Notes: generated by a model not told the origin, from the sequence alone. DNA of 15,725 nt from Pseudomonadota bacterium (GCA_018262285.1 JAGTRX010000096.1:1-15725); one strand, 5' to 3'; shown: positions 574-15,179, counted from the stretch's first letter. Made by a program: numbers and translations.

Positions 574-1377
574 TCAACTCTTGTTGCGCTGCAGAAAATC
601 CGCCAGCAGTTTGTTGAGGCTGGCGGGATCTTCGACCACGACGGCGTGACCGGAACCCGGCACGACGTGATACTCGGATTGCCTGATTTCGCGATGCATG
701 ATTTCGCTGTAGCGCGGCGGTTTGATGATGTCTTTCTCGGCCGCGATAATCAGGGTCGGGCAGCTGATTTCCTTCAGGCGCGCCGTGCAGTCGAGTTGTA
801 CGAAGGCATCGACCAGGCGGGCAAAGGCATGGAGGAAGTCTTTGGAAATATGGGCAAATTCCAGGCTGCGTGCTTCCAGAAAATCGCGCTGCCGCGCCAG
901 AAATTCGGCCGAGTAGCTCCAGGGCAGCAAGGATTTGTAGAAGGCAACGGCATCGCCGCTGCGCGCCACCGCCGCCCAGGATTCGACCGCTGATCTGAGC
1001 AGGGCGTCCATTTCGCTGACGCCGGTGATCATGGTCAGTGATTGGGTGCGCTGCGGATGGGTGAAAGCAAAAAATGCCGCCACTTCGGAGCCATAGGAGG
1101 TGCCGATCAGATGTGCCTTGTCGACACCGAGCGCATCAAGCAGCGCCAGCGTATCCGCCACATGCGCATCGAACGAGTAGGGCTCTTCCGGCTTGTCGCT
1201 CATCAACTGACCGCGAAAATCATGGCAAAGGCAGCGATACTGTGGCGAAAAATGATCGGCCATCGGCTTCCACAAAGAAGCCGTCATTCCGATGCCGTTG
1301 AGAAAAACCAGCGTGTCCGTGCCCTCGCCCTGCAGCTCGTAATAGAGCCCCACGTCACCTACGTTGATTTTCGGCAT
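574..1377 (-). CDS. Alpha/beta-fold hydrolase (esterase/lactonase-like)
   Basis: GTSYG nucleophile elbow, HGxP-like LVFLNGIGM oxyanion region, and a C-terminal GSGHAVVVEDP catalytic-His motif. An AGGAGG RBS lies 6 nt upstream of the ATG at 1377. The six-frame ORF extends to 1434, but that upstream stretch has no RBS and is unconvincing. Confidence 0.85.
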   Translation of the reverse strand: MPKINVGDVGLYYELQGEGTDTLVFLNGIGMTASLWKPMADHFSPQYRCLCHDFRGQLMSDKPEEPYSFDAHVADTLALLDALGVDKAHLIGTSYGSEVAAFFAFTHPQRTQSLTMITGVSEMDALLRSAVESWAAVARSGDAVAFYKSLLPWSYSAEFLARQRDFLEARSLEFAHISKDFLHAFARLVDAFVQLDCTARLKEISCPTLIIAAEKDIIKPPRYSEIMHREIRQSEYHVVPGSGHAVVVEDPASLNKLLADFLQRNKS

Positions 1378-1437
1378 GTGTCCTCCTGTTGAACCTGGAA
1401 AAAGCAACTTGATTAGAAAGGAACGCCGGCTCACCTA

Positions 1438-1607: not shown

Positions 1608-1844
1608 TTACAGCAACTTCTTGACCTCGGCGACTTTGGCCTGCATCGCCGGCGTCAGTTCGGAAGGTGTCAGTTTGCTGATAATGCTGGACAGCACGCG
1701 TTTTTCATTGGCATCGACAATGCCATCACGCAGGGCGATATCGACGATGGATTGCAGTTCGTCGGGCAGTAGCTTGCCGTCGTTGGTAAAGCAGTCGATG
1801 GAGCGGAAGCTCATTTCCAGATAATCACGGCTGTCTTTATTCAT
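1608..1844 (-). CDS. Small acidic protein of 78 aa, translationally coupled to the giant ATPase gene
   Basis: The ATG at 1844 is preceded by GGAG (AAAAAAGGAGAAACAAATG). The ATG overlaps the giant gene's stop as ATGAATAA. The product reads MNKDSRDYLEMSFRSIDCFTNDGKLLPDELQSIVDIALRDGIVDANEKRVL.... The longer 99-aa ORF start is out-of-context Pro-rich junk. Confidence 0.6.
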   Translation of the reverse strand: MNKDSRDYLEMSFRSIDCFTNDGKLLPDELQSIVDIALRDGIVDANEKRVLSSIISKLTPSELTPAMQAKVAEVKKLL

Positions 1845-4800
1845 TTGTTTCTCCTTTTTTCCTGGGTTTGGGTACGGATTGTTGGGCGGCGGCGGGCAGA
1901 CTGCCATCCAGTTTTTTCAGTTCTTTGGCGATTTCGCGCACCTGATCCCAGATGCTGTGGTCGAGGCGCAGCTTGTGATAGTTTGCAGTAACCAGCGGTG
2001 CGATGCCTTGTTCGTAGGTTTCGGCCATGCGTTTGACGGCAGCGGCGAGCGCTTCCGATTCCGGTACGGCAACGTTGACTTCGGTTTTCAGGCCAGACAG
2101 AGCCTTGCGCAAGGCCTTGAGTTCGCTTTCCCAGTCCGGGCCGGCGGGTGGCGGTGCAGGTGGCACTTTCTGCTGCTGCAGCATGGCATCGAGGGTAACG
2201 CTGATGTCGGCCAGCAGTTTGGCCACCTTGGTGGCGCCGTCGCCTTCGGCACCGCCGAATTTTTTCAGCCGCCGATAGTCGTCGCAGATGGTGGTCCAGC
2301 GTGCCTGTTCCTCGGCTGTCGGGCGGCCGATCAGCGCGGCCAGGCGCAGCAGATTTTCCTCGGCGCCTGCCGTCAGCGTCTGCGCCTCGCCGCGGTAGTG
2401 ATCACGCATTAGCGCGTCGAGGTCGTCAGCGTTCATCAGGGCATTGACCTTGGCCGCCAGCTTGGCCATGTTGCGGTAACTGCCCTGCAGCTTGAAGGGC
2501 GGCTCGGTGCGGTAGGCGTCGTCCTGCGCAGCCGAGGCGATGTAGGCGGCGTTGACCTTCAGCAGTACGTCGCGCACCTTGAACAGGCGCTGCAGGATGG
2601 CGGTCAATTCGTTCAGTTCGGCAGCGCTGTACTGGTATGAGAAGGCATCCATCGCCACTTCCTCGCCGGCAGCTACCCGCACCAGCAGGCCGACATCCTT
2701 GGGGTCGCGTGTCGCTAGTGGCATCAGCGCTGGGTTGGAGGTCAGGCTGTTTTCGAGGTAGGAGAGGGCGAACAGCGCTTCGCGGCCGGAAAGGACATCA
2801 CCGAGGTTGTAGATGTCGGCACGGTTGGCCAGCATGTCCGGAATCTTGAAGACTTCGCCCGATTCGGTGTACGGGTTGCCGGCCATGACCACAGCGAAGC
2901 GTTTGCCGCGCAGGTCATAGGTTTTCGGCTGGCCCTGCCAGACGCCTTCGATGCGGCGGGTGCCGTCGCACAGCGCGATGAATTTCTGCAGGAATTCCGG
3001 GTTGGTGTGCTGGATGTCGTCAAGATAGAGCATGACATTGTTGCCCATCGCCAGCCCGAGGTTTAGCTTTTCGAGTTCCTGCGCGGCGGCGCTGTGCGGT
3101 GCCTTGCCGGGGTCGAGGGCGGTGACTTCGTGGCCGAGGGCAGGGCAGTTGATGCGCACGAACACCAGCCCGAGACGGTCGGCTAGATATTCCATCAAGG
3201 TGGTCTTGCCGTAGCCCGGCGGCGAAATGAGCAGCAGCATGCCCATGCGGTCGGTGCGGCTGTTTTCGCCGGCGGTGCCGATCTGCTTGGCGAGGTTGTC
3301 GCCAACCAGCGGCAGGTAGACGTCGTTGATGAGCTGGTTGCGCACGAAGCTGGACAGTGGCTTGGCCTGGAACTGCTCCAGGTGCAGGCGGGCTTTTTCC
3401 TCTTCCAGCAGGCGCTGGCGCAGGGCCTGCCAGCGCTGGAAGCCGGGGACGATATTCTGGCAATGGGCCTGGAAGCGCTGGTGGAAGTCGTTGAGATTGA
3501 GCCACAGACCACCGTCGACCAGACGCGGATGCTCGCCGCGCAAGCCTTGCAGCTTGAGGCCGAGACGGGCGTTAAGGCGCTGGCGCGGCAGGTTGAGGGT
3601 GAGCAGGGCGGCGGCTTCGTCGATCCAGTCGGCTTGCTCGGGTTCTTGCTGTGCGACATAGGCGTGCATCCAGTCGCGGGCCAGACGCCAGCACACCAGC
3701 GGCACGCAGTCGGCCAGTTGCTCGCGCCAACTGCTCAGCTTGCCCTGACGCTCCAGCGTACGGGAAAAGCCGTCAGCCAGATCGAGGGCGGCGCCGCTGG
3801 CGATCCAGGTGGCGTTGCCGGCTGCCTTGTGGGCCAGTTCCTCGGCCAGATAGGCGGCGGCTTCGCCAGCCAGTTCGGGGCCGACGCCCCAGAGTTCGAG
3901 CAGGCCTTCGCGCTGCCCGAAGGTGAGCAGCCAAGCTTGCCATTTGGCAATCAGGGTCTGGCGTGCTTCTTCGCTGCCGAACAATTTGCGGATCTGGGCG
4001 GCACTGGCGGCCTGACGCTGCAGGTTGGGACGTTCGATGGCCGGCACGCCTTGCTGCCAGTAGAGCATGGCCAAAGCACGGGCACGCGGCCCGTAGCGCA
4101 GCAGCGCCGCTTCGGCTTCCATGCGCAGCAAGGCCTGCAGCAGCGTGGCAGCATCATGGTCGTGAACGCCTTTTTGGTAACCTTCCTGATAGCGCGGTGC
4201 CGCAAAGCTGCGCACCTGCGTAAGCAGGGCTTCGGTCAGAGATTCAGTTTCGCTTTCTGCCAGCATGGCTTGCAAGGCATTCCATTCTTCGCGATTGGCC
4301 AGCGCTGATTCGAGCATGCGGCCGGCCAGATATTCGGCGCGGTAGAGATTGGGGCTTTCTGACACCAGCGCCTGCGACCAGAAAGCGCGTAGCGGTTCGG
4401 TATCGGGATGCGACAGCGGTTGCAGGTAGTCGGTGCCGGTCAGGTGCCAGTTCAGCCCCTGTTCGCTCGGCACCATGGTCAGATCGAGCGCCTGTTTGCC
4501 GATGGTAAACGCGTGGCGGCCGAGGCGAATGGAGTTGCCATCTTCCGCCACCATGTCTCCACGGTCACGCACCAGACGCAGGGCCTGATCGCGGGCGGTC
4601 TTCAACTGGGTGTCGAGATCGTCGGCCAGCACCTGGGCGCCGATGCCGCGCAATTCCTCAATCAGGCTGCGGCATTTGGCGATCAGCGCGTCACCGGCAA
4701 AATAGGCGTGCACTTCGCTGACTTCGCGGAATCCCTGCACCCGGCGCGGCACGCCGGTGAGGATGCGTTTGGCCGATTCGGCCAGATTTTGCTGGCGGCG

Positions 4801-7007
4801 CTGGCGAACTTCCAGCAATTGCTGTTTGCGGGCGGCCAGCGCTTCGTAAACGGCTTCGCGCTTTTCGGCCAGATCGGCGGCAAAGCGCTCGTCCTCGCCG
4901 AAACGGCCTTCCAGTTCCTCGATTTGCGCCAGCAGGCGGGTTAGCGCGTCGTCGCACTGGTCGGGGGTATCGGTGCGTTCCAGGGCGCTTTCGACCGCCT
5001 GGCCGAAGAGCTTGAACTGGGCGCCAAATTCCGCCCCCAGTTCCTGGGTGGACAGGCTCTTGCGCCGGTTCTTGGCGGCAGCGCGCAGGCGATTGACTTC
5101 GGCATAGACCGTCGACACCTGTTCGAGGATGGTGGTGCGGGCAACAGCATCGCCACCAGGCAGGCCACCGACCAGCTCGTTCAACAGATCAAGTCCGGCG
5201 CCGGTCTGGTCGAGCGCCTTTAGTGCCGTATCAAGGGCGGCGGTCTGGCTGGCCTTGTCGATGTCGGCGGCGGTTTTGGCCAGCGCCTCGTGATAGGGCA
5301 CGAAGGCTTTTTCGGTACCGAGGAAGCCAAGCGCCTTTTCGCCGATGCGGGTCTGTTCCTCGCCCAGTTGCGCATCGAGGGTGGCGATGCGGGCGCTGTC
5401 GATGTAGCGCTGTTCCTTCAGCGCCAGCAGGTTGCCGCGCTGGCGGCGCAGACGATCAAGGGCATCGACGAAATCCTGCGGGTGTTGCCAGAGCTTGCTG
5501 GCGATGTCGGTGAGCAGGACGCGCTGGGCAGCTTCGGCCTGTTCGAGTTGGCGGGCAGCATCGCGGCGGATGGCAGCAACCTTGTCGAATTCGTCGAGCG
5601 TGGCGCGCGCCGTGTCGATGATGGTTTGCACCGCCTGATTGGCATGGCCGGATTCATCGCAGTCCAGCCAGTAATAGGCGTCAAGAATGCGGCCACAGAG
5701 GCGGATGAGGTCTTCGTAAACGACGCGGGTGGCGACCTGTTCGCGCACGGCGCGGCAGATTTCCATCATGTCGGCAACGCCGCGCACCAGTTCGGCATTG
5801 CCGATGCGGCCAAAGAAACTGTGCTGATCGACCTGCTGATTGGCGTGGTCGTCCTCGCAGAACGGTGTCTGCCACAACTGCATCGGGTGATTGCGCGTCG
5901 GGTCGCTGTTTGCGCGTAGAAGACGTAGAGCACATCTTCGCCGTTGGGCGAGCGCACCGAGCGCTTGAAGCGAAAGCCGGCATCGGTATCGGCGGGCATG
6001 TCGAAGCGCTTGTTTTCGCCGGATTGCAGGTAATAGCCACCGGGGAAAATGATGCCGTGGTCTTCCGGCAATTGCACGCAGGAGCGACCGATGGCGTCGA
6101 TGCGGGCGACCTGCTGGGTGCGGTGGTTGTAGACCAGATAGCGGTAGTCGTCTTCGCGGTAAGGCTTGATCTTGAGCAGGATGAGCGAGCCGAGTTTGAC
6201 GTACTGGATATCGGCATCCACCAGCGCCTGATTCTGGTCGACCACCGGCTCGCTGTAGATGCCCAGTCCGCTTTCGGTATTGTTCTCGATCTTGACGGTG
6301 AGATCGCCGCCCACCGTTTCGACGAAGATGGTGTCGAGAATATTGACGTGCGGACACTTGCCATTGACGTGCTCGTCGCGGCCGGTGACGACCCATTCGA
6401 AATCGTGCGTCGGCGGCAGGGCAATGTCGCGCTCGCCGCGATTGTCGATGTATTTGACGCTGCCGTCGTTTTCAATCGACCAGCGGAAAACACGCAGATC
6501 GTTGACGGTTTGGCCGATCTGGAAGGCGGCCAGCAGTTTCTGTTGATTGACGCGTAGCCTTACCAGGCTGGCGTGCTTGTAGTAGGTATAGAGTTCGCGG
6601 AAATCGAGGACGAAGCGTGGGTCGGTCAGGAAGCTATTAGCCGGGTCGGCGGGCACCAGTTCATCGGCGCCCTCCGCCTCGTTGAGGCGATAGAGGCCGA
6701 AGACATCGGCAACCTGAATGTCTTTGCGCAGGCCGATAAAGACGTTGTAGCCGAACAGCAGGGTATCGCCGACGCGGACGATGTCGCGGGCCACGCAGTT
6801 GTTTTCGGTGCGGGCTCGCAGGCGGGCCTTGAGGCGCAGGTCGGACTTGCCGAAGGCGCCAATGCGCGCTTCGTTCAATGCCTGCACCTTGCCGACCAGC
6901 GCTTCGCCGTGCTGCATCAGGCGGCGTTTCAGCAGATCGTAACTGCCGCCCTCGGCGATGGCGGCGTCGATGTTGTTGGTGTCGTCAGTGGATACAGTGG
7001 TGTTCAT
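1837..7007 (-). CDS. Giant (~1,720 aa) multidomain protein with a MoxR/dynein-type AAA_5 ATPase. It is disrupted by an apparent 1-nt frameshift near 5895-5910, and the six-frame track splits it into ORFs 5766-7007 and 1837-6396.
   Basis: N-terminal ~370 aa are mixed and beta-rich (MNTTVSTDD...GEDVLYVFYAQ). A long alpha-helical/coiled-coil middle follows. Walker A reads LLLISPPGYGKTT. Walker B/sensor reads VMLYLDDIQHTNPEFLQKF...FAVVMAGNPYTESGEVFKIPDMLANRADI, as in AAA_5 (LLLDEINRA...ATMNP). A C-terminal helical tail ends in KPRKKGETNE. The in-frame protein sense switches from frame A to frame B between YVFYAQ and NHPMQLWQTPFCEDD. Confidence 0.75.
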
Positions 7008-7048
7008 GGAGCTTTATCCTGAAACAAAGCGAACTTGTCGGGTGGGTC

Positions 7049-7076
7049 AAGCCCGGCCGGAGCCGGGCTTTTGCCT
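7049..7076. other. Stable 9-bp GC stem-loop between the flotillin and giant-ATPase genes
   Basis: AAGCCCGGC-CGGA-GCCGGGCTT at 7049-7070, followed on the + strand by TTTGCCTTT. In the sense (minus) orientation no U-tract follows it. Confidence 0.4.
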
Positions 7077-9176
7077 TTAGCTATGCTTCGTAATCAGTTT
7101 TTGCAGGGCGGCGCGTTGCTCTTCGCTGCCGTCTTTCATCACCTTGGCGATCAGTGCGGAAACGCCCAGATTCTGCATTTCCGGTGCTGAGCTGCCGAGG
7201 GCGCCGAGCAGTTCCTTCAGATCGCCGACCATATCGCGTTCACCGGTCAGATGATCCTTCAAGGCCACCTGCAGGGTGTTGCTGCGTGCAATGGCGCCAT
7301 CGATGCCCTTGCCAACCGCCAGCGCATTGACGAAGCGTTCGAAATAGTCGCCCTGGCCGCCGACGATGTCGATGTTGGCATGGCCAAGCGCCGAGGACAG
7401 CACGCCGGCCTGTTCCTTGGCGACGGCGACCTGCGATTCGATGCCCTTCATGGTTTCGACGTGCACGTTCTGAACGCGCATGCGGTATTCCTCGTGCGCC
7501 CGTGTTTCCGGCGCCATGGTGCGCATGGCGTCGAATTTTTCCTTGAGACCGCGCGCTTCGGCCTGCATGCGGGCTTCGATGGCGCTGGCTTCGGCATTGC
7601 CCTGCTTGGCAACGGCCTCGGCGTCGGCAGTCTTGATGTGCACGGTAGCCAGACCGAGTTGCTCGTTACCCTGGGCTTCCGCTTCCAGTTTCTTCAGCAG
7701 GGCTTCGGCTTCGGCAGCGCCCAGCTTGGCGACGGCTTCGGCGTGGGCGATCTTGACGCGGGCGTCGACCAGGCCGGCTTTTTCGCTGGCGTCGGCATTG
7801 GCCAGCTGCACTTTGGCCTGTGCCAGACCGGGCGCGGCGGTAAAGGCTTCGACCCCCTCGGCTTCGCGCTTCTTGGCTTCGGAATCTTTCTCGGCCGCTT
7901 TCAGGCGAGCTTCAGCCAACACCAGATTCTGGCCGGCCTGATGCTTGGCACTGCGTTCGTTGGCCTCGGCCGCCTTCACCTGCAAGACCAGATCGTGTTC
8001 GGCCTGACCCTCGGCTTCGATGACAGACGCCTTGCGATTGCGGTCGGCTTCGGCCACTTTGCGCACTTCCTTGATGGCTTCTTCCTGCTCGGCGACAGTA
8101 CGCTCGACCACGACGCGCTCTCGGATGACGTCGGCGATGGCTTTCTTCTGCACTTCGACTGATTTGTCCTTGTCGATGGTCTGCAGCGTCACTTCCTTTT
8201 CGCGATCAACGATTTCGAGCTGACGGGCGCGGATGACACGCTCTTCCTCGATGGCCACAGCGCGCATACGGTTATTCTCGGCGACCTGCTTCTCGCGCTG
8301 AACATTTTCCTGCTGCACGAGAATGGCCTGTTCAGTCTGCAAGCGTGCCATTTCGGACTTGCCGAATTCTTCGGCCTGGATGCGCTTGGCTTCAGCCTGT
8401 TCGCGCGCCTGCACGGAGGCGATTTCACGTTGCTGGCGGGCCTGGGCTTCAGCCTGCTGGCGTTCGAGTTCGTAGACGGTTTCCTGCGTCTCGACGTCCT
8501 TCTTCTTGATCTGCGCCTGTTCGTCACGCTTCCACTGGTTGGTGCGGATATGTTCGGCGGCGGTCAGTTCGGTGATCTTACGGATGCCTTGGGCATCGAG
8601 AATATTGCTCGGATCAAGATGTTCAAGTTGCGTCTGTTCCAGATAGTCGATGGCGGCGTCTTCCAGCACGTAACCGGAGAGGTTGTCGCCGATCTGCTTG
8701 ATGATTTCATCGCGGAAACGGTCGCGTTCCTGATACAGCTCTTCGAAATCCATCAGCTTGCCGGCGGTTTTCAGGGCTTCCGAGAACTTGGCGGAGAATA
8801 ATTCTTCCAGGGTTTCCGGATGCGAGGCGCGCTCGCAACCGATGGTCTGCGCTACCTTCAGCACGTCCTGCTCGGTCTTGTTGACGTGCACGAAGAACGT
8901 GACCTCGATATCGGCACGGATATTGTCTTTGCAGATCAGGCCATCCTTGCCGGTGCGCTTGATAACAATGGTTTTGATGGAGATGTCCATCATTTCCATC
9001 TTGTGGATGACCGGATAGACCATGCCGCCAGTGAAAGTGACTTCCGGCGCGTCACGCAGGGTGTTGTTGATCATGGCGTGACCCTGTTCCACCTTGTGGT
9101 AGAACTTCGAGAACAGGGCAAAGATGCCAAAGATCAAAATGACTATGGCGACAACAGGGATAAGTAGTAATTCCAT
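7077..9176 (-). CDS. Flotillin-family protein (SPFH/band-7 domain, YqiK-like), 699 aa
   Basis: N-terminal TM helix (LLLIPVVAIVILIFGIFALF), an SPFH domain, then a long Ala/Glu/Lys-rich EA-repeat coiled-coil typical of flotillins. GGGAG RBS upstream. Sits immediately downstream of an NfeD-like gene, as in yqiJK/yuaF-floT. Confidence 0.9.
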   Translation of the reverse strand: MELLLIPVVAIVILIFGIFALFSKFYHKVEQGHAMINNTLRDAPEVTFTGGMVYPVIHKMEMMDISIKTIVIKRTGKDGLICKDNIRADIEVTFFVHVNKTEQDVLKVAQTIGCERASHPETLEELFSAKFSEALKTAGKLMDFEELYQERDRFRDEIIKQIGDNLSGYVLEDAAIDYLEQTQLEHLDPSNILDAQGIRKITELTAAEHIRTNQWKRDEQAQIKKKDVETQETVYELERQQAEAQARQQREIASVQAREQAEAKRIQAEEFGKSEMARLQTEQAILVQQENVQREKQVAENNRMRAVAIEEERVIRARQLEIVDREKEVTLQTIDKDKSVEVQKKAIADVIRERVVVERTVAEQEEAIKEVRKVAEADRNRKASVIEAEGQAEHDLVLQVKAAEANERSAKHQAGQNLVLAEARLKAAEKDSEAKKREAEGVEAFTAAPGLAQAKVQLANADASEKAGLVDARVKIAHAEAVAKLGAAEAEALLKKLEAEAQGNEQLGLATVHIKTADAEAVAKQGNAEASAIEARMQAEARGLKEKFDAMRTMAPETRAHEEYRMRVQNVHVETMKGIESQVAVAKEQAGVLSSALGHANIDIVGGQGDYFERFVNALAVGKGIDGAIARSNTLQVALKDHLTGERDMVGDLKELLGALGSSAPEMQNLGVSALIAKVMKDGSEEQRAALQKLITKHS

Positions 9177-9256
9177 TGCGGGGCTCCCGTGGTTTGATTC
9201 CCGGCGACAGGCCGGAGGCGAAAATAAAAAAGTGGCAGATTGTTATGGCGGGCGAC

Positions 9257-9907
9257 TTACCCTTCTTCGTCGGGTTCGACCAGATAGCGCCGGGTTTGCT
9301 GATCGTAGGATACGACCGAAGTCATCGAGCCCTTATGCAGAGTGTTGGGTTCTTTGGCGGCAATCTTGATGTTGTAAGAGGCGCCGCGACTGGCGACTTC
9401 GCCCTGGCCGAAGTTTTCGGTAACCTTCAGCGTGGTGACGCGGCACTGCAACCCGATCAGGCTTTCGTTGGAAGGAGCTGGATGGGCAACGAACAGTCCG
9501 CGTAGCGGCCGCGAGAACAGGGCTGTGAAGAAAATGGCCGGGATCAGCGCCAGTACCAGCACCAGCAGGCCGATCAGGGTGCGGGTCAGACCGCCGGGCA
9601 GCAGCGGCAGTAGATAGCGGGTGACCAGGGCAGTAGTCGTCCAGCCGAAAATGGCGAGCAGGGTCAGCACCAGTGACAACGGGACGCCGGTCAGACTAAA
9701 GGTGACAGCGTAATGATCACCTTCGGCATGCGCGTCGCCATGAAGATCGCCATGGACTTCCGGGCCGCCATGATCGAAATCAAGGCCGTGATGGCTGACA
9801 TCGACCAGGCCGACGATGCCCAGCAGCCAGTACAGCAGCGCTACGCAGAGCAACACCGAATAAACGATGGTCGGCCATTCGGTGAGAATGTTGAGCAGGT
9901 TGTTCAT
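9257..9907 (-). CDS. NfeD/YqiJ-like inner-membrane protein (TM helices plus a C-terminal OB-fold-like soluble domain), the flotillin partner
   Basis: Two to three hydrophobic helices, a His/Asp-rich loop, and a C-terminal LQCRVTTLKV...GEVASRGASYNIKIAAKE beta domain typical of NfeD short forms. GGGAGG RBS. Lies directly upstream of the flotillin gene. Confidence 0.8.
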   Translation of the reverse strand: MNNLLNILTEWPTIVYSVLLCVALLYWLLGIVGLVDVSHHGLDFDHGGPEVHGDLHGDAHAEGDHYAVTFSLTGVPLSLVLTLLAIFGWTTTALVTRYLLPLLPGGLTRTLIGLLVLVLALIPAIFFTALFSRPLRGLFVAHPAPSNESLIGLQCRVTTLKVTENFGQGEVASRGASYNIKIAAKEPNTLHKGSMTSVVSYDQQTRRYLVEPDEEG

Positions 9908-9954
9908 TTGCCTCCCGGCATTATTATTTTATGCGGCGAAGATTATGGCAGCTT

Positions 9955-10647
9955 TTAGCGGTTTTCACATCCCGCCAGTTTTATCCACAATTGCTCGAAG
10001 TGCCGGGAAAAACAGGCAATCAGTTCTGGGTCATCGGTGATGATCAGATTTTCCTCGTTGTAACGGCTGGCGCTACGGGTCCAGTTGAAGCTGCCGTTGA
10101 GTAGCCAGCGAGCGTCGAAAATGGCGTACTTGTGATGCATGTGCGCTTCGGTCTGGTCGACAACGACAGAAATGCCGGCCTGTCGCAGCGTTTCAACGTC
10201 GCTGCCACTGTCTGATGCCTTGTCGTTGTCGGTAATGAAGCGCAAGGCAACGCCGCGCCGGTGTGCCGCCAGAATGGCATCGCGGATGCGGTCGTCTGAC
10301 AGCGTAAAGACACAGACATCGACGCTTTTTTGAACAGCCTGAAAGCGCTGGCAGATGGTGTTTTGGCAGGCGTCGCCGGGAGAAAAGAAGACCTCCGAGT
10401 GAACTGGATTTCCGCGTGCGCTATCGAGCGCCCGCGCCACGCCTTCCAGCCAGCGTACCAGGCTGGCGGCTTCCAGCCCGGCAGCCAGCCGTGTCTGCAC
10501 CATTTCAAAAGCGCGGTTGCGTACCCGGCGCAAGCCTTCCTCCGGCGCACCGTGGCTACGCAGCAGATTGACCAGTTCGCGGCGCTCGTCGTCGGACAGA
10601 CGCAGGTCAGCGATGCTGGCTTCAAGGTGGTCGAGGATCGTTTGCAT
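9955..10647 (-). CDS. Phospholipase-D superfamily protein with a single HKD motif (Nuc/endonuclease-like) and an N-terminal ~100-aa helical domain
   Basis: HxKx4D motif HMHHKYAIFD followed by GSFNWTRSASRYNEEN (the GSxN...N.E signature). Single-HKD proteins act as dimers (Nuc, BfiI-type nucleases). The ATG at 10647 has no strong SD. Confidence 0.8.
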   Translation of the reverse strand: MQTILDHLEASIADLRLSDDERRELVNLLRSHGAPEEGLRRVRNRAFEMVQTRLAAGLEAASLVRWLEGVARALDSARGNPVHSEVFFSPGDACQNTICQRFQAVQKSVDVCVFTLSDDRIRDAILAAHRRGVALRFITDNDKASDSGSDVETLRQAGISVVVDQTEAHMHHKYAIFDARWLLNGSFNWTRSASRYNEENLIITDDPELIACFSRHFEQLWIKLAGCENR

Positions 10648-10804: not shown

Positions 10805-11887
10805 ATGAATACCAAAGGCCCCATCCTGCTCGCTCGCTACCTGGCTCTTGCCTGTCTGGGGCTCATCATCTATGCCAGCCTGCACCCATTTTCTGGCTGG
10901 CGCATCAGCGGCATTTCGCCTCTCGCTTTTCTCGAAGGCGGCTGGCCGCGTTACTGGACTGTTTTCGATTTGGTTGTCAACGCGCTGGCCTATCTTCCGC
11001 TCGGCTTCCTTTTTACTTTGGCGCTGGCGCGAGTTCCTGGTCGCTTCAGCGCCGCTGTGCTGGCGACGCTGGCCGCTGCGGCGGTCAGTCTGGGCATGGA
11101 ATGCCTGCAAGTTTATTTGCCGAGCCGCGTACCTTCCAATCTTGATCTCGTCTGCAACAGCCTGGGCGGCCTGATCGGGGCTGTCCTGGCCTATCGTGCC
11201 GGCCCGCGTTTTTTCCCGCACCTGATAGAGTGGCAGCACCGGCTGTTGGCACCCTTGCCGCATGCCGAGTTGGGTTTGACCCTGCTCGGCCTCTGGCTGC
11301 TCATCCCGCTTTCGCCGGAAATCCTGCTCTTCGGCGCCGGCGATGTGCGCGAAGTTTTTGATCTGGCTGGTGCCATGCCGTTTTCACCCGGTAGCAGCGC
11401 ACCCATGGAAACCGCTGTAATTGCCTGCAATACTGTTGCCGTCGGTCTGCTGGTGCGCTGGCTCGCTGCCAACACCCGTCTGGCTTACTCATTGGCGCCA
11501 ATTTTCCTTGCCCTTGGCCTGGCGGTTCGCTCGCTCGCCGCTGCCGTTCTTGTTTCGCCGGAACAGGCTTTTTCCTGGTGGACGCCGCCAGTTCAGAACG
11601 GTTTGCTGGCAGGCGGCCTGTTCCTGTTGCCAGCGCTATTCCTGCCGGCTGGTCTGCGCATCGTGCTGGCGGCGCTGGCGCTGATGTGCGGCACCGTGCT
11701 GGTCAATATCACGCCGCCCAACCCCTATTCCATCGCCGCTCTGGCCTCCTGGCGGCAGGGTCACTTTCTCAATTTCAACGGCCTGACCCGGCTGATTTCA
11801 ATTCTCTGGCCTTTCCTGGTCTTGCCTTTCCTGATGTTCTCCAATCGCAGGACGACCGAGAACCAAGCTACGGTTTTGCCGGATTAG
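10805..11887 (+). CDS. VanZ-like family membrane protein with a polytopic C-terminal extension
   Basis: VanZ signature FDLVVNALAYLPLGF (D..N...Y.PLG) and multiple TM helices across 360 aa. Confidence 0.75.
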   Translation: MNTKGPILLARYLALACLGLIIYASLHPFSGWRISGISPLAFLEGGWPRYWTVFDLVVNALAYLPLGFLFTLALARVPGRFSAAVLATLAAAAVSLGMECLQVYLPSRVPSNLDLVCNSLGGLIGAVLAYRAGPRFFPHLIEWQHRLLAPLPHAELGLTLLGLWLLIPLSPEILLFGAGDVREVFDLAGAMPFSPGSSAPMETAVIACNTVAVGLLVRWLAANTRLAYSLAPIFLALGLAVRSLAAAVLVSPEQAFSWWTPPVQNGLLAGGLFLLPALFLPAGLRIVLAALALMCGTVLVNITPPNPYSIAALASWRQGHFLNFNGLTRLISILWPFLVLPFLMFSNRRTTENQATVLPD

Positions 11888-11892
11888 GGCGC

Positions 11893-12267
11893 TTACTTGA
11901 GCGAAGCAAACGCTTCCTCCCAATGCTGCCCATCGAACGACTCTATCTCCGGTTGTTCACGTTGAAAATCAAAGTTATCGAGCGTGCGTACATTGACGGT
12001 GTATTGCTCCGGTGCTGCCCGGGGGCGTGAGAAGGTGTGAATGCCGCAGACTTTGCAGAAATGATGTTTGGCGATCTTGCTGCCGAATTGATAGGTTCCA
12101 AGTTGCGACTCGTCGGATAGGAGACGAAAATTCTCCGCCGTCACACGATGATGAAGGACGCCTTTTTTTGTGCAGATGGAGCAATTGCACTCGGTGACGC
12201 GATTGATGACGGCATTGATTTCATAGCGAACCGCACCGCAATGACAACTACCCAAATATAAAGTCAT
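11893..12267 (-). CDS. GFA-family (CENP-V/glutathione-dependent formaldehyde-activating-like) zinc-binding protein
   Basis: Conserved cysteine constellation GSCHCGAVRY...CNCSIC...HHFCKVCG. The upstream GAGGGGGG RBS overlaps the cobB stop. Confidence 0.85.
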   Translation of the reverse strand: MTLYLGSCHCGAVRYEINAVINRVTECNCSICTKKGVLHHRVTAENFRLLSDESQLGTYQFGSKIAKHHFCKVCGIHTFSRPRAAPEQYTVNVRTLDNFDFQREQPEIESFDGQHWEEAFASLK

Positions 12268-13040: not shown

Positions 13041-14258
13041 CTATGGCGCCAGCTCCTTCGGCAATAGCACCCACATCTTTCCGGACTGTTTCATCCGTCC
13101 TGCTTCCTCGCCAGCCTTGGCACCAAATCCCCAGAAAAAGTCGGCGCGAACGACGCCCTTGATGGCGCCACCAGTGTCCTGCGCCAGCATCAGGCGATTC
13201 AGCGGCTGGCTGGAATTGGGGCGGGTGGTGGCGAGAAAGACCGGGGCGCCGAGAGGAATAGCGCGCGGATCGACGGCTAGGCTGCGCTCTGCCGTCAGCG
13301 GCACACCGAGCGCACCGAGCGGGCCATCGTCGGAGGCCGGCAGTTCGCGGAAAAAGACATAACTCGGATTGGCGTTGAGCACCTCCTGCAACTTGCCGGG
13401 ATTGGCGCGCGCCCAGGCCTGAATGCCCTGCATTGAGGCTTCGCCCGCTTTCAGTTCGCCGCGCTCGATCAGCACCCGACCAATGGATTGATAGGGGTGG
13501 CCGTTCTGGTCGGCGTAGCCGAGCCGCACCAACTTGCCATCCGGCAATTTGACCCGGCCGGAACCTTGCACCTGCAGGAAAAAGAGTTCAACCTGATCCT
13601 CGACCCAGAGTAGCGGTGTCCCCAAACGCGCCCCCCGGTTTTCCTCAATGTCACGCCGGGCGTAGTAAGGCACTACCTTGTTGCCGACCAGCCGGCCACG
13701 CAAACGCATGTGCCGCAATTCCGGCAGAACTTCACTCAAATCAATGGTCAGCAGATCGTCCGGCACGCCATAAACCGGCACCTTGGCCAACTTGCCGGGC
13801 GTGCGACTGCCTTTCAGGAGCGGTTCGTAATAGCCGGTGATGAGGCCTTCGGTTTTGCCATCGGCGGCGGTCGCTGCAAAGGGCTGAAAATTGCCTTCAA
13901 AAAAACGGCGCACGGCGGCAGAACTTTTGCTATCTACCCCGGCAGCTTCGGCGCAAACCTTTTTCCAGGTAGGTGCCTTAACCGTCAGCACTCGACAGGA
14001 TTGCAAAAAAGCCGGCCAGGCAGCCCGCACATCGTCTTCCTCCCAACCCGGCAAGTCCTTCCAGTCTGCCACTTGCAGAGGCTTGGACGCTGGCTGCGCC
14101 AAGTCGACGCCAGGACACTTTGGACAGGGCGGACAGTTTGCGGGCGCGGGCTCATGTACCGTCAAGGACTGGCAGGCAGACAAGCTGACAGCCAGCAACA
14201 AAACAGCAAGCAGCCTGCGTTGAAACAAGTTTTTCGGCTCCAATTGGCTTTTCTCCAC
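13041..14258 (-). CDS. mltA: Membrane-bound lytic murein transglycosylase A (MltA) lipoprotein
   Basis: Lipobox LAVSLSAC, MltA core GYYEPLLKGSR, 3D-domain signature DTGGAIKG..RADFFWGFG. The start is uncertain: GTG at 14258 per the ORF track, or a TTG 15-45 nt downstream after GGAG. Confidence 0.85.
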   Translation of the reverse strand: MEKSQLEPKNLFQRRLLAVLLLAVSLSACQSLTVHEPAPANCPPCPKCPGVDLAQPASKPLQVADWKDLPGWEEDDVRAAWPAFLQSCRVLTVKAPTWKKVCAEAAGVDSKSSAAVRRFFEGNFQPFAATAADGKTEGLITGYYEPLLKGSRTPGKLAKVPVYGVPDDLLTIDLSEVLPELRHMRLRGRLVGNKVVPYYARRDIEENRGARLGTPLLWVEDQVELFFLQVQGSGRVKLPDGKLVRLGYADQNGHPYQSIGRVLIERGELKAGEASMQGIQAWARANPGKLQEVLNANPSYVFFRELPASDDGPLGALGVPLTAERSLAVDPRAIPLGAPVFLATTRPNSSQPLNRLMLAQDTGGAIKGVVRADFFWGFGAKAGEEAGRMKQSGKMWVLLPKELAP

Positions 14259-14300
14259 GCATTCGCTACAGTGACAATTTTAAGGATTGTACCTGTCGGC

Positions 14301-15179
14301 ATGCCAGATTCCCTCCAGCTTGAACGTTTGTTACATCGCGCCGAAGTCGTCCTCGGGCGGCTCGAAGCCTGTCTGCCGCCGGTACCACCGCTGCCGGACT
14401 GGCAGTCTGCCATTGCCTGGCGCTGGCGGCGTTCACGCACTTGTGGCTATCTGCAAGCGATCAAGCATCCGCACTGGATCACACTGGATGATCTTGACTG
14501 CATCGACGAACAAAAAGCCCGCGTTCTGGCCAATACGCGGCAGTTTGTTGCACGTAAGCCAGCCAACAATGTGCTGCTGACCGGTGCCCGCGGTTCGGGA
14601 AAGTCGTCATTGGTCAAAGCCATGCTGCACAAATTTTCAGGCAAGGGCTTGCGTTTGATCGAAGTCGACAAGGAGGATATGGTCGATCTGCCCGATATTG
14701 TCGATCTGCTGGCCGGTCGCCAGGAGCGTTTCATCATTTTCTGCGATGACCTTTCCTTCGCCGCCGGCGAATCCTCCTTCAAGGCGCTGAAGTCGGTACT
14801 GGACGGTTCTCTGGCGGCGGCTCCGGACAATGTGCTGATCTACGCCACCTCCAATCGCCGTCACCTGATGCCGGAGTATTTTTCGGAAAACATGGAAAGC
14901 CAGCGGGTCGGTGATGAAATTCATCCCGGCGAAGCGATGGAGGAGAAAATATCCCTTTCCGAGCGCTTTGGCCTGTGGATTTCCTTCTATCCTTTCGATC
15001 AGGAGGCCTATCTCACCATTGTCGAGCACTGGCTCAAGCATTTTGGCATTTCAGGGCATAATAGCGAGAATGTTAGGCGTGAAGCGCTGAACTGGGCGCT
15101 GGCGAGGGGAGCACGCAATGGTCGGGTGGCCTGGCAATTTGCCAAGGACTGGTCGGCGCAGCATCACAAGAAGAAATGA
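14301..15179 (+). CDS. DUF815-family AAA+ ATPase
   Basis: Walker A LLTGARGSGKSS, Walker B RFIIFCDDLSF. It is in frame within the 13710-15179 ORF. The 5' 591 nt of that ORF is antisense to mltA and is not coding. Confidence 0.8.
   Translation: MPDSLQLERLLHRAEVVLGRLEACLPPVPPLPDWQSAIAWRWRRSRTCGYLQAIKHPHWITLDDLDCIDEQKARVLANTRQFVARKPANNVLLTGARGSGKSSLVKAMLHKFSGKGLRLIEVDKEDMVDLPDIVDLLAGRQERFIIFCDDLSFAAGESSFKALKSVLDGSLAAAPDNVLIYATSNRRHLMPEYFSENMESQRVGDEIHPGEAMEEKISLSERFGLWISFYPFDQEAYLTIVEHWLKHFGISGHNSENVRREALNWALARGARNGRVAWQFAKDWSAQHHKKK

Follow-up and report, generated by a model that had tools for sequence, protein, structure and literature searches.

A flotillin-giant AAA+ ATPase cluster, probably a reduced form without PspA of a conserved envelope-stress and membrane-remodelling operon

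Which cellular system is encoded by a minus-strand gene cluster that combines a flotillin, a giant AAA+ ATPase and a PLD-superfamily protein? A sequence-only reading of the 15,725-nt stretch of DNA analysed here (hereafter, the window) described five same-strand genes and raised the possibility of a membrane-anchored machine, perhaps anti-phage, or a DNA-associated repair complex. All five genes are located as described, except that the gene of the giant protein is split between two frames; the open reading frames (ORFs) of the other four, i.e., the PLD, YqiJ-like, flotillin and 78-aa genes, were verified. The features of the cluster are as follows:

9955..10647, minus strand: single-HKD PLD-superfamily protein, 230 aa, MitoPLD/Zucchini-like (Pfam PLDc_2, 1.4e-30)
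10114-10143, minus strand: HKD motif of the PLD protein, HMHHKYAIFD
10078-10098, minus strand: GSFN motif of the PLD protein (NGSFNWT)
9257..9907, minus strand: YqiJ/YuaF-like (DUF1449-like) membrane protein, 216 aa (profile comparison with YqiJ)
7077..9176, minus strand: flotillin/SPFH protein of the YqiK type, 699 aa: N-terminal TM segment, SPFH domain, long charged coiled coil (BLASTP against YqiK)
7049..7070, no strand assigned: perfect GC-rich hairpin, AAGCCCGGC-TCCG-GCCGGGCTT, within the 69-nt spacer between the flotillin and giant genes
5913..7007, minus strand: giant ATPase 5' part, residues 1-365, N-terminal helix and beta-propeller-like DUF3686 (Pfam DUF3686, 5e-151, profile positions 2-335)
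5912..5914, no strand assigned: 121-bp deletion junction in comparison with contig L001 (BLASTN and sequence comparison)
1837..5911, minus strand: giant ATPase 3' part: DUF3686 end, helical/coiled-coil region with DUF7902, AAA+ module, helical tail at the C-terminus
5056-5310, minus strand: DUF7902, within the helical/coiled-coil region
3199-3222, minus strand: Walker A of the giant ATPase, PPGYGKTT
3007-3036, minus strand: Walker B of the giant ATPase, VMLYLDD
2899-2955, minus strand: predicted pre-sensor-1 hairpin of the giant ATPase
2872-2892, minus strand: sensor-1 N of the giant ATPase
2809-2835, minus strand: candidate Arg finger of the giant ATPase
1608..1844, minus strand: 78-aa acidic protein, TerB/EF-hand-like (family profile matches)
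1755-1784, minus strand: first DG-x-(D/E) loop of the 78-aa protein, NDGKLLPDEL
1704-1730, minus strand: second DG-x-(D/E) loop of the 78-aa protein, RDGIVDANE

The PLD and YqiJ-like genes are separated by 47 nt (48 had been counted), while the gaps of 80 nt (YqiJ-like/flotillin) and 69 nt (flotillin/giant) agree with the earlier figures, as does the 8-nt overlap (1837-1844) between the stop of the giant gene and the start of the 78-aa gene. The neighbouring genes, named earlier as mltA, cobB and mutT, were identified as MltA, SIR2/CobB and NUDIX genes. No stress-type promoter was detected. The hairpin between the flotillin and giant genes has no T-tract downstream on the sense (minus) strand, and could possibly act in mRNA processing or stability or as an attenuator, tuning the flotillin:ATPase stoichiometry.

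The giant gene had been taken for a single ORF of ~1,720 aa. In the window it consists of two ORFs in different frames, 5766-7007 (413 aa) and 1837-6396 (1,519 aa), between which the Pfam DUF3686 match is divided (profile positions 2-335 in the former and 362-448 in the latter). Contig L001 (ENA ERZ27276616), which is 99.8-99.9% identical to the whole window (BLASTN), carries the gene intact, encoding 1,763 aa, and comparison of the two revealed that the window lacks 121 bp, at a junction with at most 3 nt of microhomology. Residues 366-405 of the intact protein (PESGRY...VFQAE), approximately the last propeller blade, are thereby lost and the frame is shifted, such that the frame of the 5' part continues out of register to the stop at 5766. 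Since 12 of the 13 remaining differences in the gene are synonymous and one is non-synonymous, there is no further sign of decay. The deletion is either a true mutation or an assembly error, i.e., this ATPase copy is either non-functional or mis-assembled.

A survey of gene neighbourhoods had been named beforehand as the check that could refute a conserved functional block, should the linkage prove sporadic. The linkage was near-universal: among 71 species-level loci from Beta- and Gammaproteobacteria, the giant gene is immediately preceded by YqiJ-like and flotillin genes on its own strand in 69, and PLD homologues recur in 32 of 58 related loci (55%). Of the 69 loci, 58 (84%), among them that of the 69%-identical relative L088, have a CesT/DUF2170-PspA pair upstream, yet the tightest partners of the giant gene are the flotillin and YqiJ-like genes, not PspA. 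The block also crosses phyla, as Hymenobacter (Bacteroidota) has the triad (annotated Tir chaperone-PspA-DUF1449-hypothetical-'DNA repair ATPase') and Streptomyces has a flotillin-giant pair; the giant protein is also encoded by Deinococcus. Moreover, the PLD, 78-aa and Zn-ribbon proteins recur in the block at varying positions; that membership is conserved while order is shuffled indicates that these genes are functionally linked. Other recurrent neighbours in related loci are rhomboid, CorA-like and Na/Ca-exchanger genes; the recurrence of Zn-ribbon (Zn_ribbon_TFIIB), rhomboid and CorA-like genes near the block is a new observation. The 15.7-kb window itself contains neither a CesT/DUF2170-PspA pair nor a Zn-ribbon gene.

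Although the combination had been considered impossible to place in any named system, it has in fact been described. Using comparative genomics, Ravi et al. (2024, mSystems 9:e00847-23; PMC11237479) delineated a PspA/CesT-linked operon of a band-7/flotillin protein, a YqiJ/YuaF protein and a beta-propeller-coiled-coil-AAA+ protein (exemplar, Dokdonia donghaensis ANH61663.1), with an HKD PLD as an option 'in some Proteobacteria', and proposed a role in sub-membrane dynamics. The window has the flotillin, the adjacent 3TM YqiJ/YuaF-type protein and the optional HKD PLD of this operon; it lacks the CesT/Tir (DUF2170)-PspA pair, and its ATPase gene, unlike that of the operon type, is frameshifted. 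Since PspA-less 'abbreviated' operons are counted as related in that study, the window represents an abbreviated form and not a non-member. Two further differences concern the accessory genes. The PLD gene of the described operon lies downstream of the ATPase gene, as it does in every PLD-bearing locus that we surveyed, whereas that of the window lies upstream of the YqiJ-like gene, an order found in 0 of these 32 loci; and a counterpart of the 78-aa gene is not mentioned in the parts of Ravi et al. (PMC11237479) that describe the operon. In line with the earlier description of the system as uncharacterised, our literature search found no experimental study of any member of the operon.

The two upstream genes of the triad place the system at the membrane. 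The flotillin aligns with E. coli YqiK over 441 aa that include the N-terminus (BLASTP, 4e-39, 27% identity) and has one TM segment (residues 1-19). It gave no match to Pfam Band_7, whereas its orthologue in a related locus (L002; phmmer E = 0, 1153 bits) matches this family at 4.2e-10. The 216-aa protein had been labelled NfeD/YqiJ. It has no direct match in Pfam or NCBIfam, and no match to NfeD (PF01957-type) even at E <= 5, so the NfeD identity is not supported; the YqiJ/DUF1449 family fits better, given that a profile of 16 orthologues aligns with E. coli YqiJ (hhalign, probability 87%, E 3.7e-6) and that in Hymenobacter the gene occupying this operon slot, flanked by PspA and the flotillin-like gene, bears a DUF1449 annotation. 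It has about three hydrophobic segments (residues 7-25, 66-84 and 99-117) and, going by the YqiJ alignment, a putative beta-rich, OB-like C-terminal domain. By TM topology, the YqiJ-like protein and the flotillin are the only membrane proteins of the cluster, in keeping with the membrane association proposed previously.

Homologous gene pairs in the same order are found in E. coli (yqiJ-yqiK) and B. subtilis (yuaF-floT; NfeD-like and flotillin pairs), but giant ATPase, PLD and 78-aa genes are missing from the E. coli locus, and the flotillin encoded in the window has an extra 146 aa. A link between SPFH proteins and PspA is known from B. subtilis, where PspA is brought to the membrane by the SPFH protein YdjI (Scholz et al. 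2021, as quoted by PMC10936438 and PMC9239133). There, PspA, the Zn-ribbon protein YdjG, the membrane partner YdjH and YdjI are encoded in one operon, ydjFGHI, which the relatives of the window resemble in that their block includes PspA and also a Zn_ribbon_TFIIB protein; the window has neither. Conversely, ydjFGHI has no AAA+ ATPase or PLD, and YdjH, with its TPM domain, does not resemble YqiJ.

We further characterized the giant protein, whose family architecture in Pfam is DUF3686 + DUF7902 + AAA_5. An AlphaFold2 (AF2) model of the intact DUF3686 domain is nearly all beta, in four-strand groups, and every Foldseek match of it in the PDB (E <= 1e-3) is a beta-propeller, mostly 7-bladed, albeit with TM-scores of only ~0.15. 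The AAA+ fold is closest to NorQ/CbbQ (MoxR) and ClpB-D2, with Walker A/B, sensor-1 and Arg motifs intact, such that the earlier AAA_5/MoxR-type assignment is roughly right; the calls of a single-HKD PLD, a YqiJ-like membrane protein, a YqiK-type flotillin, an AAA+ giant and a 78-aa protein hold. As the two AF2 models are of low to moderate confidence (pLDDT 58.7 for DUF3686 and 64.8), both the propeller and the AAA+ clade are tentative assignments, the latter suggesting a module of the pre-sensor-1-hairpin type that folds like MoxR and ClpB-D2, a new observation. The giant differs from the MoxR-family systems NorQ/NorD and CbbQ/CbbO in that its ATPase is set in a 1,760-aa multidomain protein and its Walker B reads DD, not DE; the VWA-domain partner typical of MoxR systems was not among the conserved neighbours of the giant gene (80 loci).

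ESCRT-III/Vps4 and HflK/C-FtsH offer a functional analogy, being membrane polymers or SPFH cages genetically coupled to a dedicated AAA+ ATPase. The giant's AAA+ module, with its predicted pre-sensor-1 hairpin, finds its best fold matches in MoxR-type NorQ/CbbQ and ClpB-D2 and appears to lie outside the classical Vps4/FtsH clade, and the ~1,760-aa protein with its putative propeller has no MIT domain, protease or TM anchor. The analogy to HflK/C enclosing FtsH, along with the rhomboid protease encoded in some operons, could point to membrane-protein quality control, in which an SPFH cage would confine or present membrane proteins and the giant would act as an unfoldase or extractor, its targets being proteins and not the bilayer or PspA. 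We consider this rather unlikely. Neither the giant protein nor the rest of the window contains a protease domain, the giant has no TM segment, and the high frequencies of the PspA/CesT pair (58/69) and the lipid-hydrolase-like PLD (32/58) indicate bilayer or polymer remodelling over a protein target.

The PLD protein carries a single HxK(x)4D...GSxN motif in a Nuc-type domain and has no TM or hydrophobic segment. Its closest solved relatives are mitochondrial cardiolipin hydrolases (9lkx, 3.3e-29; 4ggj, 5.2e-27); the 9lkx chain, which carries this annotation, is 39% identical to it over 133 aa, and its matches to the bacterial nucleases Nuc (1byr, 1.5e-10) and NucT (5.4e-6) are much weaker. 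By these sequence matches, the protein is closest to mitochondrial cardiolipin hydrolase (MitoPLD), a new observation. It resembles MitoPLD/PLD6 (Zucchini) in its single-HKD Nuc-type fold and membrane-associated context, and differs in having a soluble ~90-aa helical N-terminal extension where MitoPLD has a TM anchor. Whether MitoPLD/Zucchini acts as a lipase or a nuclease is debated, and because its relatives Zucchini and Nuc are nucleases, a lipid is only a candidate substrate of the PLD.

A nuclease effector of this kind, together with the giant ATPase as sensor or motor, would suit the anti-phage role suggested earlier, i.e., a membrane-anchored defence or abortive-infection system, and pairs of a large ATPase and a nuclease-like gene are frequent in defence systems. 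Comparison with defence HMMs returned weak PLD matches in PADLOC (MkoC, 1.4e-8; DpdK, 1.7e-7; DrmC, 2.4e-6) and to the DISARM protein DrmC in NCBIfam (1.6e-8), yet all were far below the cut-offs (in NCBIfam, 34 bits versus 133 for DrmC and 33 versus 100 for DpdK). PADLOC-DB v2 gave no match for the flotillin, YqiJ-like and 78-aa proteins, and the matches of the giant, to LmuB/IetA (1e-4 to 1e-2), cover coiled-coil or P-loop stretches only. Furthermore, the PLD is optional, and the block is core-like and apparently vertically inherited in whole genera (e.g., 11 Variovorax species), residing in housekeeping contexts and next to PspA; among 50,697 phage records none has a relative, and among 72,556 plasmid records just 13 do. 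These findings render an anti-phage function very improbable.

The 78-aa reading is an inner start of a 99-aa ORF (1608-1907). Homologues occur in 14 of the 58 related loci, where they follow the giant gene or sit between it and the flotillin gene, and D22, G23, D40, G41, D44 and E47 are invariant among them. In Pfam, 11 of the 14 members match TerB (best 1.6e-5), 9 match DUF533 and 5-7 match EF-hand families (~1e-3), with the window's own member below significance against these profiles; no solved sequence relative was found at E < 0.2. The family thus looks TerB/EF-hand-like by its profile matches, which is likewise a new observation.

What remains to be weighed is the DNA-repair or nucleic-acid-processing complex, also considered in the sequence-only reading. 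The Pfam text for DUF3686 reads 'ATPase involved in DNA repair' and the NCBI family is named 'DNA repair ATPase'; in addition, the PLD has the nucleases Nuc and NucT among its relatives, and the giant has a weak RuvB P-loop similarity. This similarity is limited to ~45 residues at Walker A and is far below the cut-offs, and our literature search found no paper in support of the family name, to which this reading comes down. The conserved partners are all membrane or membrane-stress proteins (flotillin, YqiJ, PspA, rhomboid, CorA-like), and no DNA-binding or repair genes recur among the neighbours. We regard such a complex as highly improbable, the least credible of the readings considered here.

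Taken together, these results indicate that the cluster is probably a reduced version, lacking PspA, of a conserved bacterial operon for envelope stress and membrane remodelling, most likely a flotillin-anchored, ATP-driven module for membrane stress or remodelling. In the mechanism that we infer, the multi-pass YqiJ-like protein and the YqiK-type flotillin would build an SPFH assembly at the cytoplasmic face of the inner membrane, on which the soluble ~1,760-aa giant would dock via its propeller or coiled coil, using ATP for remodelling, extraction from or disassembly of the flotillin assembly. In most genomes, the giant would also act on the co-encoded polymer of PspA, the bacterial ESCRT-III; since the window has no PspA, this link would here depend on a copy elsewhere in the genome. 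The MitoPLD-like single-HKD enzyme may modify a local lipid, our best guess being the conversion of cardiolipin to phosphatidic acid, and the TerB/EF-hand-like protein could be a divalent-cation-binding regulator.

A more specific, and at present speculative, extension of this membrane-remodelling reading is that the triad, optionally joined by PspA, the MitoPLD-like lipase and the TerB/EF-hand-like protein, serves bacteria as a machine for repairing the plasma membrane, in parallel to ESCRT-mediated wound repair in eukaryotes. The giant would then be the long-missing Vps4-like, ATP-driven remodeller for PspA and flotillin, while the PLD would make phosphatidic acid from cardiolipin at the lesion and the 78-aa protein would sense divalent-cation influx, as ALG-2 does. 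If this tentative idea is true, mitochondrial MitoPLD may descend from the PLD component of this bacterial operon.

The open reading frames of the window, taken from a six-frame listing, place the cluster and its neighbours as follows:

9955-10647, minus strand: PLD-family ORF, 230 aa
9257-9907, minus strand: YqiJ-like ORF, 216 aa
7077-9176, minus strand: flotillin ORF, 699 aa
5766-7007, minus strand: 5' ORF of the giant ATPase gene, 413 aa
1837-6396, minus strand: 3' ORF of the giant ATPase gene, 1,519 aa, in a frame different from that of the 413-aa ORF
1608-1907, minus strand: ORF containing the small downstream protein, an inner ATG at 1844 giving the 78-aa product of the sequence-only reading
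10805-11887, plus strand: VanZ-like membrane protein, transcribed divergently from the PLD gene
11893-12267, minus strand: GFA-family protein, flanking gene
574-1434, minus strand: alpha/beta hydrolase, flanking gene
13710-15179, plus strand: DUF815-type AAA ATPase, annotated in the near-identical contig L001

Intergenic distances within the cluster are 47, 80 and 69 nt, and the start of the 78-aa gene overlaps the stop of the giant gene by 8 nt. The genes, domains and gene order of the sequence-only reading are therefore as it gave them, save that one spacer was off by one and that the giant gene is not one ORF. None of the last four genes listed recurs beside the block in other genomes. Inside the 69-nt flotillin-giant spacer lies a perfect GC-rich hairpin (7049-7070) whose 9-bp stem closes a 4-nt loop. 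The coding (minus) strand has no T-run after it, so for transcription of these genes it does not qualify as a canonical terminator; speculatively, it could tune the relative expression of flotillin and giant ATPase. Consensus scans of the window for sigma-70 promoters and terminators gave chance-level hits only, a sigma-54 scan likewise produced no site that stood out, and an Rfam scan returned no match.

Where a single protein of ~1,720 aa had been read, the giant gene is split over two ORFs in different frames, with the Pfam DUF3686 match divided between them (profile positions 2-335 in the 413-aa ORF, 362-448 in the 1,519-aa ORF). A homology search with the spliced sequence retrieved an intact 1,763-aa protein (P0001, 98% identity) encoded on contig L001 (ENA ERZ27276616), which aligns to the whole window in two blocks at 99.8-99.9% identity, leaving 121 bp of L001 unmatched. 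This stretch codes for residues 366-405 (PESGRYGLFTYNLINRNLGTPLLANGYARFEDGRVLVFQAE), and without it the reading frame changes. A programmed frameshift was ruled out, because coding sequence carried by the near-identical contig is itself absent from the window. Otherwise, 21 substitutions separate the two contigs, 13 in the giant gene and 8 in the VanZ-like gene. Twelve of them cluster in a ~240-bp part of the giant gene (3415-3652; 11 synonymous, one non-synonymous), one further synonymous change lies at 2227, and the remaining 8 lie within ~75 bp of the VanZ-like gene (11614-11689), a clustering typical of recombination tracts or of strain-mixture (chimeric) metagenome assembly. Given that 12 of the 13 changes in the giant gene are synonymous, nothing apart from the deletion points to decay of the gene. 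Either the deletion arose very recently or it is an error of assembly; the exact 413-aa product of the deletion allele had no match on record, and the 31-mer spanning the junction was absent from JGI metagenome contigs. The window carries one more copy, probably a damaged one, of an operon type already on record.

The sequence-only reading had made conservation of the block its key question, with sporadic linkage to flotillin and NfeD as the outcome that would speak against it. The family of the giant is sizeable: of the 8,000 candidates scored, over 5,500 were homologues at E <= 1e-10. With each species represented by a single genome, a scan yielded at least 562 stretches encoding a giant, of which we analysed the best 80 loci, all from Beta- and Gammaproteobacteria. 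Neighbourhood architectures were derived by comparing HMMs from clean families with six-frame ORFs, all-ORF and greedy-longest-ORF clusterings having been discarded on account of antisense ORF pollution in high-GC loci. Among the loci of this best 80 with at least 3.5 kb upstream, 69 of 71 carried the YqiJ-like and flotillin genes directly upstream of the giant on the same strand, so the linkage is not sporadic, the block is real and its proposed conservation is borne out. The sole surveyed exceptions were two Methyloprofundus MAG loci (L073 and L077), where no flotillin or YqiJ-like gene lies within 6-10 kb upstream of the giant; in L077 the orphan giant gene adjoins small reverse-strand ORFs. 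Further upstream, 58 of the 69 linked loci encode a DUF2170 (CesT/Tir-like) protein paired with PspA/IM30, both Pfam-confirmed. The membership of the block is conserved, and the order of its accessory genes is shuffled.

Accessory genes in the 58 loci with both flanks available, from the best 80 of at least 562:
113-aa protein: 35/58 loci
PLD: 32/58 loci, always downstream of the giant gene
Zn_ribbon_TFIIB protein: 30/58 loci
78-aa protein: 14/58 loci, between flotillin and giant or after the giant
CorA-like protein: 12/58 loci
Rhomboid protease: 12/58 loci

The ~113-aa protein, which has no Pfam match, is encoded between the PspA and YqiJ-like genes in most of the operons from Betaproteobacteria (e.g., L005:5892-6330 and L088:4288-4629), and its gene is absent from the window. 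In L088, a relative with 69% identity, the order is DUF2170, PspA, 113-aa protein, YqiJ-like protein, flotillin, Zn-ribbon protein, 315-aa protein, giant and an 81-aa protein; the 315-aa gene (8044-8991) has no Pfam match, and a Na/Ca-exchanger gene lies just downstream on the opposite strand. A closer relative (L089, 87% identity) has flotillin, Zn-ribbon and giant genes. Annotated records extend the pattern to Hymenobacter (Tir chaperone, PspA, DUF1449, hypothetical protein, giant) and Streptomyces (flotillin, giant), and relatives of the giant with 42-50% identity occur in Deinococcus, Nonomuraea, Vibrio, Proteus and Halomonas. On pQBR103, a P. fluorescens SBW25 megaplasmid used in experimental evolution, the YqiJ-like/SPFH/giant triad is joined to yjfK-L-M-C-like polyamine genes (L085, 85.4-97.6 kb). 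The joined block encodes PspA, rhomboid, DUF2491, DUF350, DUF1190 and glutathionylspermidine-synthase-like proteins, uniting two PspA operon classes that Ravi et al. keep separate.

Relatives of the giant were found in none of 50,697 phage records and in only 13 of 72,556 plasmid records. An anti-phage function, raised by the sequence-only reading, is not supported: the distribution is core-like, the block is missing from the phage records and seldom occurs on plasmids, the PLD is optional, and a PADLOC scan, whose models do not cover the block, found no defence system.

Within the giant protein, Pfam recognizes DUF3686, DUF7902 and, weakly, AAA_5/AAA; orthologues share without variation the Walker A (PPGYGKTT) and Walker B (YLDD) motifs, the sensor-1 asparagine and a candidate arginine finger. 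A PDB sequence search gave P-loop-level matches only, with no solved relative beyond the P-loop. For the first 500 residues of the intact protein, an AF2 model (low confidence, pLDDT 58.7) predicts an N-terminal helix followed by ~6-7 four-strand beta groups, and all its Foldseek PDB matches at E <= 1e-3 are beta-propeller domains, mostly seven-bladed. With TM-scores of only ~0.15 these matches are a hint that agrees with the published 'beta-propeller' call, short of proof; on this model the deletion would take out roughly the last blade of the propeller-like domain. In a search of 1.84 billion representatives, a profile of the N-terminal domain matched only 812 clusters (50% identity), and since the matched full-length proteins span 1,590-2,036 aa, the domain is essentially confined to the giant architecture. 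For the AAA+ region (pLDDT 64.8), AF2 places a beta-hairpin between the Walker B and sensor-1 strands, making the earlier 'MoxR/midasin-type' label roughly right, if soft. Public databases name the family 'DNA repair ATPase' or 'repair protein', names that apparently spread from the Pfam DUF3686 description and are probably misleading. A literature search on DUF3686/PF12458 found no paper, and none in support of the repair name; a role in DNA repair has only the database name in its favour.

As for the partners, the PLD (PLDc_2, 1.4e-30) has one HKD motif, no transmembrane segment and a ~90-aa helical N-terminal extension, which proved unrelated to the 78-aa family. Its closest solved relatives are mitochondrial cardiolipin hydrolases (MitoPLD/PLD6/Zucchini; 3.3e-29, 39% identity over 133 aa), compared with 1.5e-10 for bacterial Nuc and 5.4e-6 for NucT. 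Direct Pfam and NCBIfam scans of the 216-, 699- and 78-aa proteins gave no match, and these were identified through pairwise or profile comparison with E. coli YqiJ/YqiK and through orthologues. The 216-aa protein, with about three hydrophobic segments, matches E. coli YqiJ over the membrane region and C-terminal domain (16-sequence profile, 87% probability, E 3.7e-6). The 699-aa protein matches the E. coli flotillin YqiK (4e-39) in an alignment that starts at the N-terminal transmembrane segment and takes in both the SPFH domain and the coiled coil, and its L002 orthologue passes Pfam Band_7; a PDB sequence search with it found no match. Alone, the window's 78-aa protein had no significant match. 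Across its family (n=14), with two invariant DG-containing acidic loops, 11 members match TerB (best 1.6e-5), 9 DUF533 and 5-7 EF-hand models (~1e-3), suggesting a TerB/EF-hand-like mini-protein that probably binds cations. A 75-aa gene downstream of the Streptomyces giant was compared with this family and is unrelated. By transmembrane prediction, membrane proteins are limited to the YqiJ-like protein and flotillin; the other three, PLD, giant ATPase and 78-aa protein, are soluble.

Ravi et al. 2024 (mSystems 9:e00847-23; bioRxiv 2020) describe exactly this operon type, CesT/Tir-PspA operons with three combined components (band-7/flotillin, YqiJ/YuaF and beta-propeller-coiled-coil-AAA+), with Dokdonia donghaensis as the Table S3 exemplar; the window represents an abbreviated form of it that includes the PLD. 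The block envisaged by the sequence-only reading is thus conserved and membrane-linked, yet already described, PspA-associated and not evidently defensive. Apart from Ravi et al., our literature search on flotillin, NfeD and YqiK together with AAA+ turned up reviews only, and no experimental work on the operon. Better-studied related systems are E. coli yqiJK, which lacks the ATPase, B. subtilis ydjFGHI, whose SPFH protein YdjI recruits PspA to the membrane, and HflK/C-FtsH. New here are the closeness of the PLD to MitoPLD, the recognition of the small protein as TerB/EF-hand-like, the placement of the AAA+ fold, the quantified linkage, the further recurrent partners and the 121-bp lesion.

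The best-supported reading, in which all biochemical steps are inferred from homology and linkage, is that flotillin and YqiJ would form a platform on the inner membrane, to which the propeller-coiled-coil-AAA+ protein would be recruited to remodel or disassemble flotillin assemblies, at the cost of ATP, during envelope stress; where PspA is encoded, PspA (bacterial ESCRT-III) assemblies may be acted upon as well. The MitoPLD-like enzyme would change the local lipid, the leading guess being cardiolipin to phosphatidic acid, and the TerB/EF-hand-like protein, together with the recurrent CorA-like and Na/Ca-exchanger neighbours, hints at cation regulation. The chief alternative is quality control of membrane proteins in the manner of HflKC-FtsH, for which the rhomboid neighbours and ClpB/HslU-like fold matches speak; HflK/C-FtsH also sets the precedent of an AAA+ machine that serves an SPFH cage.

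PspA and Vipp1 are bacterial homologues of ESCRT-III, and the giant ATPase bears on how their assemblies, and those of flotillin, are actively remodelled. Ravi et al. remark that it is not known how assembly is controlled in PspA homologues that lack an AAA+ ATPase partner. Because this ~1,760-aa AAA+ protein is still 42-50% identical between Proteobacteria and its relatives in Actinomycetota, Deinococcota and Bacteroidota and is almost constantly linked to the flotillin/YqiJ pair, it is a strong, testable candidate for the missing motor, and the MitoPLD-like lipase and TerB/EF-hand-like protein suggest activities that may be assayed, namely cardiolipin hydrolysis and cation binding.
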